From an uncultured Nitrososphaerota archaeon (GTDB lineage: Archaea; Asgardarchaeota; Njordarchaeia; Njordarchaeales; Panguiarchaeaceae), in NCBI GenBank assembly GCA_964636085.1, contig CAZWPQ010000018.1, positions 1-29,129 on the forward strand: DNA of 29,129 bases. The letters run 5' to 3'. The position numbers and the translations under genes are program-made. Below the pieces are notes generated by a model that had not been told where the DNA came from, ran no database searches, and was given only the letters and a program-made list of their open reading frames with translations. Positions 22,741-25,562 of the stretch are shown here, piece by piece. Within the stretch, counting starts at the first letter, position 1; each line of letters begins with the position of its first letter.

Positions 22741-23766
22741 CTATCCACCTAAATGTTCTATTATTTTATCTGCAACATCCTCTAGATCTCTCTGATTCTT
22801 AAATGTTATTATCTTCAATGGCAAATGAGAAAAGTGGGGAAGTAGCTTCTCATACATAACTACGACAATGCCCATTCCCGCTTCAAGGGCCCTGCGTAGT
22901 TTTATTTCTTTGTTTATTATGTACCTTTTACTCCAATGCCCTACAACCTCAACATATATTCTTTTACCTCTCAGTTCTACCTCGAAGTCTGGAACAAATA
23001 CTATATCGTCCAGCTTAATGGCCTTTGGCTCCCTCTTAATTTTAACGCCCTTTTGCCTTAGCTTTTCATAGAGATCCTCTTCTATGATGCTATCGAAACT
23101 AGGCCACTCATGGCTAGAATAGAGACACACTTTCTCTAGGTCAATAGTTATTTCCTTGCCTGTAACCATTAATATCTTTATGTTTTTGGCGAGAACACAT
23201 ATATCTGCAAAAACTTTAAGGCTACTCCTCTGCGCAGTTATTGTTAATTTTAATGTATCCCCAGATTCATATTCAACATCAGCCTGAGCAATAGATGCCC
23301 TGAATATTGCCTCCCTAACAACTCTACCTTCTATCTCGGGCGAGAAAATAATCACTGCTTTTATGGCCTTATCCAACAGGCTCTTTATGATCAAATAGTT
23401 AACTAGTCCTGCTAATTGATGAGGTATAACATGTCTCTTTTCTATGACCTTCGACACACCATCTAGCCACGCTCTAAATGCTTCTTCATTGACATTATGT
23501 TGTTTGCAGAACTCACTAATTTTCTCGTCCAGCTCTGATAGCCTTACAAATCCACCTGTATAATTAATCCATGCCTCCTTAGTTTCTGGCGACATGCTAG
23601 CTCTTTTCTCTCCATAAAAATGCTTCAATGCGTCTAGAATATGACCACATATGCGGGGATACAGTACAGCTATCTCAGCTGCTATATCCTTAAAGGATCC
23701 CCTATTTGAGTATTTCTTCACAATCTCTATTATGCCCTCTGCGTCTCCTATTGTTAGGAATCTCAT
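22741..23766 (-). CDS. DUF790/Bax1-family PD-(D/E)xK endonuclease
   Basis: FDSIIEE...KIKREPKAI...VFVPDF...YVEVVGHWSKRYIINK matches the DUF790/Bax1 nuclease domain. Confidence 0.82.
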   Translation of the reverse strand: MRFLTIGDAEGIIEIVKKYSNRGSFKDIAAEIAVLYPRICGHILDALKHFYGEKRASMSPETKEAWINYTGGFVRLSELDEKISEFCKQHNVNEEAFRAWLDGVSKVIEKRHVIPHQLAGLVNYLIIKSLLDKAIKAVIIFSPEIEGRVVREAIFRASIAQADVEYESGDTLKLTITAQRSSLKVFADICVLAKNIKILMVTGKEITIDLEKVCLYSSHEWPSFDSIIEEDLYEKLRQKGVKIKREPKAIKLDDIVFVPDFEVELRGKRIYVEVVGHWSKRYIINKEIKLRRALEAGMGIVVVMYEKLLPHFSHLPLKIITFKNQRDLEDVADKIIEHLGG

Positions 23767-24236
23767 AATAGATCCTCCATGGCGGACAAAATATAGTCTC
23801 TAATTTGTTCAAGCCCCTCCCTACTTACTTTGTAGCATAGGATTCCATGCGAATCGTAGGTTATGTCTATTAAACCAAATCTTATTGCATTGTATAGCCA
23901 AGCCCTTACAACCTTGACTGAGCCAATTTTCATTAGTAGTTCACGAAAATAAAATTTCCTCATCGCCAACGCGTATCTAAATGCATCACCATATCCACTT
24001 AATATGTTCATGACATCTTCCAATACTGAATGTTGCCATCCCCCCCAGCGAAGATCGATCCTCTCAATTTTAAGTTTCTTTATCCTAGATGCCTCCAGAA
24101 AATTCATTAAGACATCCTCTCTAACATCCTCAAAAACGATGCCCTTTATGCTCTCTGCAATTTCATTGGGCCAAAGTCTATATAGGGTATAGACCAAGAC
24201 AATAATGAGTAGAGCTAGGATAATGAGGATATCCAT
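23763..24236 (-). CDS. Hypothetical protein: N-terminal membrane anchor plus C-terminal winged-helix-like domain
   Basis: MDILIILALLIIVLVYTLY hydrophobic helix; AWLYNAIRFGLIDI...YKVSREGLEQI wing pattern; overlaps both neighbours. Confidence 0.65.
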   Translation of the reverse strand: MDILIILALLIIVLVYTLYRLWPNEIAESIKGIVFEDVREDVLMNFLEASRIKKLKIERIDLRWGGWQHSVLEDVMNILSGYGDAFRYALAMRKFYFRELLMKIGSVKVVRAWLYNAIRFGLIDITYDSHGILCYKVSREGLEQIRDYILSAMEDLL

Positions 24237-24475
24237 TCTGAAAAAACCTCTCTAATCCTAGCCATCAAAGCCCTAAGACTATCCTTCTTCACGATGATTC
24301 TGCTCTCCTCTATACCTATAACGCCAAGATTCAGCGCGGCATTTATCCATACTTTTGCCCTAGGATGATTATGTATTCTCCCTGGGTTCTCTAAATACTT
24401 TGGAAGATCCCTCCCCAATGCTGTCAAAAATATTGCTAGATCCCTTAGGCTAATTTCCCTCTCGTCATTAGGCAT
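24215..24475 (-). CDS. Small hypothetical protein, winged-helix-like
   Basis: 86 aa, overlapping the recombinase stop and the next start; VWINAALNLGVIGI...IIVKKDSL. Confidence 0.65.
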   Translation of the reverse strand: MPNDEREISLRDLAIFLTALGRDLPKYLENPGRIHNHPRAKVWINAALNLGVIGIEESRIIVKKDSLRALMARIREVFSEWISSLS

Positions 24476-25562
24476 CCATTATTCCCTGCTCCGAAATCCT
24501 AATTTTACATTCGCCGGGAGGCAACCATGATGAGTCCAAAACCATGACTTTTCTATATGGATCATTAAGCCTAACCATCAGTAGTCTCGTATCTACTGTA
24601 TGTGCTAATACATGACCACCGATGGGTTTGTATCCTCTTCCATACAGCACACTGGGGGTTGCAACAACTTGATTTGTTATTAATACAACAATGTTATAGT
24701 TTACCGCTATCCTCCTGAGTTTCTCGACCATATCTAGTATTAGTCTTTGCCGTGCATATAGTTCTCCTTGCCCAGAGAAGTCAGCCCTAGGCAATTTTGT
24801 TAGGCTGTCGACAATAACAAGTTTTACATAGTTTTCCCTAACAACCTTTACAAGCCCCTCAATGACTTTGCGCTGATCCCAAGCACTCTCAGGTCTTGTG
24901 ATGAATACTCTCTTAAGTATATCCCTATAATCTAGCCCAAAGCGATCCAATATTTTCTTAAAACGATTCACATCAAATGTTCTTTCTGCATCCACGATTA
25001 CGGCGGAGATGTCTCCACTACTGTTAAGTCCCCAATGAACTTGCTTCATTTTCCTTTTTCTTGTTTTCTTAGTCGACTCTGTGTGTCCCTCGGCCTCTCC
25101 ACTTTTAGCAGATTCCTCCACACCAAATAGTATGTTTCTGATTTCTTTTGGATTTAGGGGAGGGAGAAAGACTGTTGCTAGTGCAGTATACACGGCTTGG
25201 CTTTTGCCTGTTGCGTAGGGTCCAGCGAGTTCTGTTACCTCTCCAACGCACCACCCACCCTCTAGTATCCTGTTTAAAGAATAGGATCCCGTACTTATGA
25301 ATTTTCTTTCGCCTTTTTCTTTTTCGAATTCTTCGAGGGTCATTATCTTCTTTCTCTGTTCATCTAGATATTCTATGGCCATGTCTAGGATTTTTTCGCA
25401 TCTCTCCTTGCTGATCCCAGTAAGCTCTGATAGTCGGCTTGGAGAATAGAGCAACAGATCCTTTATGTAGTATACCCCAATATTCTCCAGAGCCTCCCTA
25501 ACATCCCTCCTAAGCCCCTTCAACATCCTTATAGTAGGCTCCTTAGAACGATCACCGCTCAT
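24468..25562 (-). CDS. Divergent RadA/Rad51-family recombinase paralogue with N-terminal HhH domain
   Basis: HhH-like N-terminus (LSELTGISKERCEKI), ISTGSYSLNRILEGG, Walker A GPYATGKS, DAERTF, Walker B VIVDSL, NQVVA...PIGGHVLAH and LDSSWLP. ATG 25562 follows GTGGGG. Confidence 0.9.
   Translation of the reverse strand: MSGDRSKEPTIRMLKGLRRDVREALENIGVYYIKDLLLYSPSRLSELTGISKERCEKILDMAIEYLDEQRKKIMTLEEFEKEKGERKFISTGSYSLNRILEGGWCVGEVTELAGPYATGKSQAVYTALATVFLPPLNPKEIRNILFGVEESAKSGEAEGHTESTKKTRKRKMKQVHWGLNSSGDISAVIVDAERTFDVNRFKKILDRFGLDYRDILKRVFITRPESAWDQRKVIEGLVKVVRENYVKLVIVDSLTKLPRADFSGQGELYARQRLILDMVEKLRRIAVNYNIVVLITNQVVATPSVLYGRGYKPIGGHVLAHTVDTRLLMVRLNDPYRKVMVLDSSWLPPGECKIRISEQGIMDA

Follow-up and report, generated by a model that had tools for sequence, protein, structure and literature searches.

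A divergent RadA paralogue, a winged-helix-like pair and a Bax1-type nuclease form one end of a membrane-linked gene cluster in Njordarchaeales

Why would an archaeon couple the gene for a RadA/Rad51-type recombinase to the genes for a Bax1-type nuclease and two small proteins, one of which carries a transmembrane (TM) segment? This question is raised by four minus-strand genes that lie between positions 22741 and 25562 of a 29,129-nucleotide stretch of DNA (hereafter, the window; bases 1-29129 of contig C18) in a metagenome-assembled genome (MAG; 83% complete) of an uncultured member of the Asgard order Njordarchaeales. A preliminary description of this DNA had proposed that the four genes encode a membrane-tethered module in which the recombinase stands in for the helicase XPB as the partner of the nuclease. 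Our analysis provides good support for a wider arrangement, in which the four-gene cassette is one end of a cluster of at least nine genes that extends past the end of the window, so that a unit of four genes proved too narrow a frame. It is likewise well supported that these four genes make up the DNA-handling (presumably cytoplasmic) end of a cluster that is specific to Njordarchaeales and in which RadA, XPD and Bax1 paralogues are coupled to proteins of the membrane and the cell surface. As to what the cluster does, we favor the import or exchange of DNA coupled to recombination at the membrane, to which we assign a probability of roughly 0.4.

The cassette encodes, in this order, a RadA/Rad51 paralogue that we call RadAp (24468-25562; 364 aa), the small proteins p86 (24215-24475; 86 aa) and p157 (23763-24236; 157 aa), and a Bax1/DUF790 paralogue that we call Bax1L (22741-23766; 341 aa), all on the minus strand. 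The ORF (open reading frame) coordinates confirm overlaps of 8, 22 and 4 nt at the RadAp/p86, p86/p157 and p157/Bax1L junctions, respectively. A neighborhood survey showed that the order RadAp-p86-p157-Bax1L is kept in all five genomes of the genus that we sampled (this one and four others) and also on metagenome contigs, and that the ATGA overlap of p157 with Bax1L is preserved in each of the five, which bears out the earlier proposal of a coupled unit. None of the genes that flank the cassette in the window adjoins it in the four congeners, where the flanks are unrelated; since the same order recurs in four other genomes despite these unrelated flanks, the arrangement is not due to chance. 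Identity to the window proteins in the four congeners was 53-73% for RadAp, 38-44% for p86, 35-42% for p157 and 31-38% for Bax1L. Within the same genus the canonical proteins are more alike (RadA 76-81%, Bax1 50-53%; XPB 70-76%), indicating that the cassette evolves faster than its housekeeping counterparts.

Using tblastn and ORF inspection of C18 at and beyond the end of the window, we found on the cassette strand the genes for a Big-Ig protein of 1042 aa, p300, p169, an XPD-like helicase and p221, and in relatives the nine genes follow the order Big-Ig, p300, p169, XPD-like, p221, RadAp, p86, p157, Bax1L. The gene for p221 is cut by the window end (28526-29129 and on to C18:29173, minus strand), and a 193-aa ORF at 28526-29107 of the window is its truncated form. 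A TM scan indicated that p221 is a polytopic membrane protein, and an alignment revealed a conserved FPGxLxHxxSH motif. The p221 translation holds four X residues (L034, about 1110-1125), where a short run of N directly follows the last base of the window. The helicase is an XPD-type iron-sulfur (4Fe-4S) enzyme of 486 aa with DEAD_2 and Helicase_C_2 domains and four conserved cysteines; its gene is contiguous with the cassette in relatives and lies 3.6 kb upstream of it on C18. By TM scan, p169 is bitopic with a hydrophobic segment at each end, and the Ig-domain protein has a signal-like start and a C-terminal anchor. The structural model of p300 (mean confidence, expressed as predicted local distance difference test [pLDDT], 91) matched TrwK/VirB4, HerA, FtsK and DndH-C best, and also Sir2-HerA and DUF4297-HerA; a conserved GK[ST] (Walker A) motif was present in none of 13 p300 sequences. 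The two halves of the cluster on C18 are separated by a 3-kb block on the plus strand (25905-28284) that consists of a VapB-like 96-aa gene, a PIN gene that shares 4 nt with it and, after these, a gene for a 521-aa protein with ATPase_2, winged helix-turn-helix (wHTH) and Mrr_cat domains. Paralogues occur on contigs C12 and C8. In relatives this junction carries other insertions, namely an Ig protein of 1115 aa on metagenome contig L031 and small ORFs in the genome G003.

The linkage recurs, with variations, at other loci. On metagenome contig L030 the genes p221-RadAp-p89-p165 are contiguous, contig L031 carries XPD-p222-BigIg-RadAp-p84-p165-Bax1L, and in two genomes (G001 and G004) p221 stands beside RadAp in divergent orientation. 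A second copy in the genome under study, on C35, has an Arf-like GTPase gene in its operon and the series p238-p300-p169-XPD-p221-p86-p157, in which p238 shows an N-terminal TM segment by TM scan; this copy is without Bax1L. In the sister family, two genomes (G006 and G010) hold a single operon with a p157-like protein of 266-302 aa, RadAp, p221, p300, p169 and the XPD-like helicase, and in another (G011) RadAp is followed by a 240-aa protein of the p157 family. The 266-302 aa protein contains one p157-like domain and a weak second one, and is possibly a fused form of p86 and p157. It is well supported that what remains together with the membrane module is the p86-p157 pair.

We then asked what kind of recombinase the cassette encodes. 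RadAp scored 161 bits on PF08423 over the RecA core (gathering cut-off 22), and stayed below the cut-offs of the NCBIfam RadA equivalogs (215 vs 259 bits on NF003301 and 179 vs 361 bits on TIGR02236). The canonical RadA of the same genome, which was located on C21, scored 313 bits on PF08423 and aligned with RadAp at 34% identity. Like canonical RadA, RadAp has a RecA core and intact motifs: Walker A (GPYATGKS, checked by regular expression) and Walker B (KLVIVDS) are conserved in all orthologues, and the L1 and L2 loop regions are conserved in the alignment with orthologues. The N-terminal region, probably a helix-hairpin-helix (HhH) domain, aligns with that of canonical RadA, with a HHH_5 score of 16.4 bits that is below the cut-off. 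RadAp differs from canonical RadA in its sub-equivalog scores, in a lysine-rich insert, variable in length, that follows the Walker A helix, and apparently in its FxxA region, which reads I/F-M/L-T/P-L/I, or is replaced by a shorter linker, against F-I-S-A in the canonical protein, the alignment of the linker being uncertain. In a quick, small tree, nine RadAp sequences formed one long-branch clade (Shimodaira-Hasegawa-like approximate likelihood ratio test [SH-aLRT] 99; long-branch effects are possible), apart both from the other Asgard RadA sequences sampled and from another clade of Asgard paralogues. For Asgard archaea, a second RadA clade that comprises Njordarchaeia and differs from the canonical copy found in the same MAGs has been reported without gene context or function (PMC12722695). 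Judged by score, orthologues of RadAp are limited to the order, and the best matches elsewhere are at the level of canonical RadA. These results confirm that the cassette recombinase is a full-length but divergent RadA paralogue that is additional to the canonical RadA, as the preliminary description had supposed. One sister-family genome (G006) carries three RadAp copies, on C91, C181 and C138 (L050, L096 and L097), besides its canonical RadA.

For the start of RadAp we took the ATG at 25562. An upstream GTG at 25652 would give a 394-aa protein with a hydrophobic N-terminus (a TM helix by scan); this extension is not conserved in the orthologues, and a TATA-like box (TTTATATA, at 25590-25597 within the segment 25584-25597, minus strand), about 31 nt upstream of the ATG, fits the shorter form. 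If this box acts as the promoter, its position would imply a leaderless or near-leaderless cassette transcript.

The nuclease is also an additional copy. Directly after the canonical XPB gene of the same genome, on C4, lies a 421-aa canonical Bax1, to which Bax1L is 24% identical; the XPB of this genome is thus paired with the other Bax1, and neither the cassette nor the larger cluster holds an XPB gene. Bax1L scored 72 bits on PF05626 (cut-off 28.8) over profile positions 263-386, the nuclease end alone, and lay far below the NCBIfam Bax1 equivalogs NF053695 and NF053694 (70.8 and 54.8 bits vs a cut-off of 500). The Pfam match could be read as a bare nuclease domain, a reading that we rejected since a profile of four Bax1L orthologues aligned over positions 5-326 to residues 26-365 of Archaeoglobus fulgidus Bax1 (AfBax1; 6p4f_B; E 6e-19), that is, to nearly all of it. 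The residues D225, S226, E229, P259, D260, F261, E273 and G276 are invariant; among them E229, D260 and E273, invariant in the four orthologues, align with the FDSxxE, PDF and YVEIVG motifs of AfBax1, whose active-site acidic triad is E275, D305 and E318 (PMC7293015). A Bax1-type nuclease, as first proposed, is therefore what the fourth gene encodes. In comparison with the archaeal XPB-Bax1 complexes of known structure, from A. fulgidus and S. tokodaii (PMC7293015), Bax1L aligns over nearly the full length and keeps the E/D/E metal-binding triad; it differs in being shorter and in that its gene is coupled to those for a RadA paralogue and a winged-helix protein and does not stand beside XPB. 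A word search with the single Bax1L sequence returned the self-match only and was uninformative.

Bax1L is the least constant member of the cassette, as it is absent from L030, from the C35 copy and from the operons of the sister family. In its place, L030 and C35 carry an unrelated protein of 161-162 aa, which may be an alternative end module at these two loci. The members of this family (L030, 2428-2913; L029, 5513-6001) have no Pfam match, are 33% identical to each other and follow p157 after a short gap. For the replacement of XPB by a RecA-fold protein as the partner of Bax1, we found no support other than adjacency, and it is made less likely by the variability of Bax1L and by the helicase of the XPD type that the cluster brings. 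A match to Bax1L in the sister-family genome G011 was not counted as a cassette, its arrangement being different: genes for a p221-like and a p300-like protein are followed by those for a Bax1 of 351 aa and a short helicase of the XPB type (326 aa; L023, G011:C82, 147-3610). This gene order indicates that a Bax1-XPB pair can attach to the same membrane module. In G011, a 354-aa gene that follows RadAp and the wHTH gene was also considered as a Bax1 candidate and rejected, as it is not Bax1-like.

That XPD, Bax1 and RadA each have a canonical counterpart elsewhere in the genome, so that the cluster holds extra copies of them, would also be expected of a specialized internal repair system, in which paralogues of nucleotide excision repair and homologous recombination proteins sit on a membrane scaffold without any transport of DNA, serving membrane-attached regions of the chromosome or the damage of a hot habitat, in parallel to the canonical enzymes. 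The intact catalytic motifs agree with such a role, as does the chromosomal housekeeping setting: at a distance of 0.7 kb from the cassette stands an NreA-type archaeal repair gene (Nre_N and Nre_C domains; 20793-22013, plus strand), of which C4 has another copy. NreA, though, is not beside the cassette in relatives, and for the same reason neither it nor two other neighbors, a radical-SAM protein and a 216-aa membrane protein, were retained as components. Purely internal repair would not readily account for an Ig-domain protein that is large and extracellular, or for a bitopic protein that has an ectodomain, and the faster evolution, compared with the canonical repair genes, would be unusual for a core route. 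We therefore consider this explanation unlikely.

The two small proteins matched no Pfam, NCBIfam or PADLOC family, and searches of PDB sequences with their profiles gave no match below E 0.5. A Kyte-Doolittle scan of p157 showed a single hydrophobic segment at residues 1-24. The AlphaFold2 (AF2) model of p157, built from a 15-sequence alignment, has a helix at residues 2-35, a low-confidence linker and, from about 66 to 157, a winged helix with pLDDT of about 90, whose secondary structure (H-H-H-H-E-E-H) includes a three-helix bundle and a beta-hairpin wing. The best Foldseek matches of p157 were the winged helices of ArsR, MarR, Sso10a, TFE-alpha and TubR (probability about 1.0, with a weak E of about 4e-3). 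Comparison of the p86 and p157 profiles by hhalign gave a probability of 93% (E 2.4e-7). On the strength of these models and profiles, p86, which is soluble, and the C-terminal domain of p157 are assigned as paralogous winged helices, in agreement with the fold first suggested for both. When p86 and p157 were co-folded, the interface score (interaction prediction score from aligned errors; ipSAE) was 0.88 in three runs, in comparison to 0.01 for the best control; among reference pairs, 58 of 80 solved complexes and 2 of 110 mismatched pairs came up to this value. In the predicted complex the contact agreement was at least 94% and the partner pLDDT was 88-89. As in MarR/ArsR dimers, each subunit contributes its first and its last helix to the interface. 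p86 and p157 are thus predicted to form a heterodimer.

MarR/ArsR-type winged-helix pairs are usually transcription regulators, which would allow the genes of the operon to have separate functions, with the pair controlling a set of spare repair genes, for example. We regard this as very improbable. The pair of a TM-anchored and a soluble paralogue stands beside p221 or RadAp in three gene contexts, which points to a structural role, and the coupling overlaps are conserved, most of all the ATGA junction described above. In the predicted fold and in the first/last-helix interface the pair resembles MarR/ArsR-type dimers; it departs from them in being a heterodimer of paralogues, in the N-terminal TM helix of one partner, in the lack of a sequence-family match, and in a tryptophan that is conserved in the third helix. 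Its context suggests a structural partner of DNA enzymes instead of a ligand-sensing repressor.

Outside the order Njordarchaeales, the families of this cluster that have no known relatives are nearly absent. Thirteen of the 14 genomes of the order that were sampled, and none of 287 from the rest of the phylum, contain the p300 family, and the p157 family is very small, with 13 clusters in a set of 5.8 billion proteins and 19 representatives in one of 1.84 billion. Remote matches to the p157 profile (P0019, P0021 and P0030) were set aside, since they lie on short or unrelated contigs. Distant relatives of p221 occur in other Asgard families, where the neighboring genes have no detectable homology to RadAp or p157. 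At one such locus, in another Asgard family (L066, G015:C37, 5334-6834), the gene of a 252-aa KaiC/RadB-like ATPase of the RecA superfamily overlaps the start of a distant p221-like gene, a hint that p221 may have been paired with a RecA-fold ATPase at an earlier time.

This distribution bears on whether the cluster stems from an integrated mobile element, as its remnant or as a module residing in the genome, with functions in replication or akin to conjugation, and is cargo that does not serve the cell. Flanks that differ in every genome, the presence of multiple copies per genome and the VirB4-like fold would all fit such an origin. Nevertheless, we saw no integrase, tRNA target or repeat boundary in the window, the cluster occurs throughout the order, the P-loop is lost from the VirB4-like protein, and a scan of viral contigs revealed no relative of p157 (the alignment of p300 varied too much to be used in it). 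An origin of this kind thus appears improbable to us.

A defense system against mobile elements has a somewhat stronger claim. Its membrane and surface part would sense or meet foreign DNA, the XPD-like, RadA-like and Bax1-like enzymes would unwind and cut it, and the winged-helix pair would act as sensor or regulator. The faster divergence of RadAp and Bax1L in comparison to canonical RadA and Bax1 would suit such a system, as would the occurrence of several copies per genome with different end modules, and the junction between the two halves on C18, which holds a VapBC-like pair and the ATPase-wHTH-Mrr protein, with other insertions in relatives. A HerA fold combined with a nuclease is a known type of defense module, as the matches of p300 to Sir2-HerA and DUF4297-HerA recall. 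The XPD-like protein scored 156 bits on the typeIV_DinG model of PADLOC, which belongs to type IV CRISPR systems; such a match, however, is expected for any helicase of the XPD family. In PADLOC-DB 2.0, RadAp, p86, p157, p221, p169, p300 and p238 matched no model and Bax1L gave a borderline score of 11.9 bits. Moreover, the presence of p300 in nearly every sampled genome of the order marks a lineage-wide trait, unlike patchy defense islands, and full-length RadA proteins whose strand-exchange loops are intact are not known as defense effectors. On balance, defense seems to us rather unlikely.

The import or exchange of DNA is favored because the cluster combines a surface protein, a polytopic membrane protein, a VirB4/HerA fold and an intact recombinase, and because it is present across the order. 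The closest parallels are the Ced system of Sulfolobales and the Ted system of Thermoproteales, which likewise have chromosomal genes for VirB4/HerA-fold and polytopic membrane proteins, and in which the importers feed homologous recombination (PMC9905601, PMC11823120). Ced and Ted have active ATPases of the VirB4 and VirD4 types and pilins of the conjugative type, and encode no recombinase or nuclease (PMC9905601, PMC11823120). In contrast, p300 of Njordarchaeales is without a P-loop, no pilin was recognized in the cluster, and the cluster carries its own helicase, recombinase and nuclease. A more specific form of the proposal, which we put forward tentatively and hold to be rather doubtful as it stands, is a chromosomal machine for DNA uptake and recombination with a dedicated set of RadA, XPD and Bax1, docking through winged helices, a dead scaffold of the VirB4/HerA fold, and parts that are unrelated to the pilins of Ced and Ted.

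For the import or exchange of DNA, as favored above, the surface and membrane proteins would make up a platform for its entry or retention, and p300 would serve as a non-catalytic ring or scaffold on its cytoplasmic face. The XPD-like helicase would unwind or pull the DNA. The p86-p157 heterodimer, mostly tied to the membrane through the p157 helix, would hold either the DNA or the recombinase at the platform. RadAp, with its intact ATPase and DNA-binding loops, could then coat the single strand and pair it with the chromosome, and Bax1L would cut the fork or flap junctions that result.

Several observations weigh against import or exchange. With a p300 that has no P-loop, the usual motor of import or secretion is absent, and no homologue of a pilin or of CedA was identified, although no profile or structure comparison with CedA, CedA1/2 or TedC was made. 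The TM helix of p157 is present in five of seven copies and absent in G001 and G004; of the membrane anchoring proposed in the preliminary description, the link to the membrane is real, and its constant part is polytopic p221 with its partners, not the p157 helix. As MarR/ArsR-type dimers are abundant among solved structures, the score of the p86-p157 complex may partly reflect likeness to them, and winged helices whose third helix has a conserved tryptophan do not necessarily bind DNA. Among the other genomes of the sister family, four have no detectable gene of the cluster next to RadAp. Also compatible with a conflict system are the fast divergence, the multiple paralogous copies in a genome and the exchangeable end modules (Bax1L or the 161-162 aa protein). 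Finally, all genomes considered here are MAGs that are 66-91% complete.

The other genes of the window are housekeeping genes. Two further ORFs are recorded here: a 470-aa protein (13219-14631, minus strand), which is a second protein annotated as 'ATPase domain predominantly from Archaea', and a 566-aa ORF (4230-5930, plus strand) with no Pfam match.

A literature search found no description of this gene arrangement, in line with the earlier impression that it is new. Its reach is bounded by a narrow distribution (one order), by data that come from MAGs only and by the lack of a cultured host. If the cluster encodes one machine, this would be the first case of an archaeon with a recombinase, a helicase and a structure-specific nuclease that are set aside for a membrane-bound task and distinct from its housekeeping enzymes. 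The second Asgard RadA clade, which has so far been seen in trees only, would thereby gain a function, and Bax1 nucleases would prove able to be recruited outside their partnership with XPB. Were the defense explanation true instead, RadA-like, XPD-like and Bax1-like proteins would constitute a new set of archaeal immunity effectors. A machine of the more specific kind outlined above would add a new way of exchanging genes in those archaea that stand closest to eukaryotes. The lineage is an Asgard one, a group in which the origins of recombination and sex in eukaryotes are under debate (PMC12722695).

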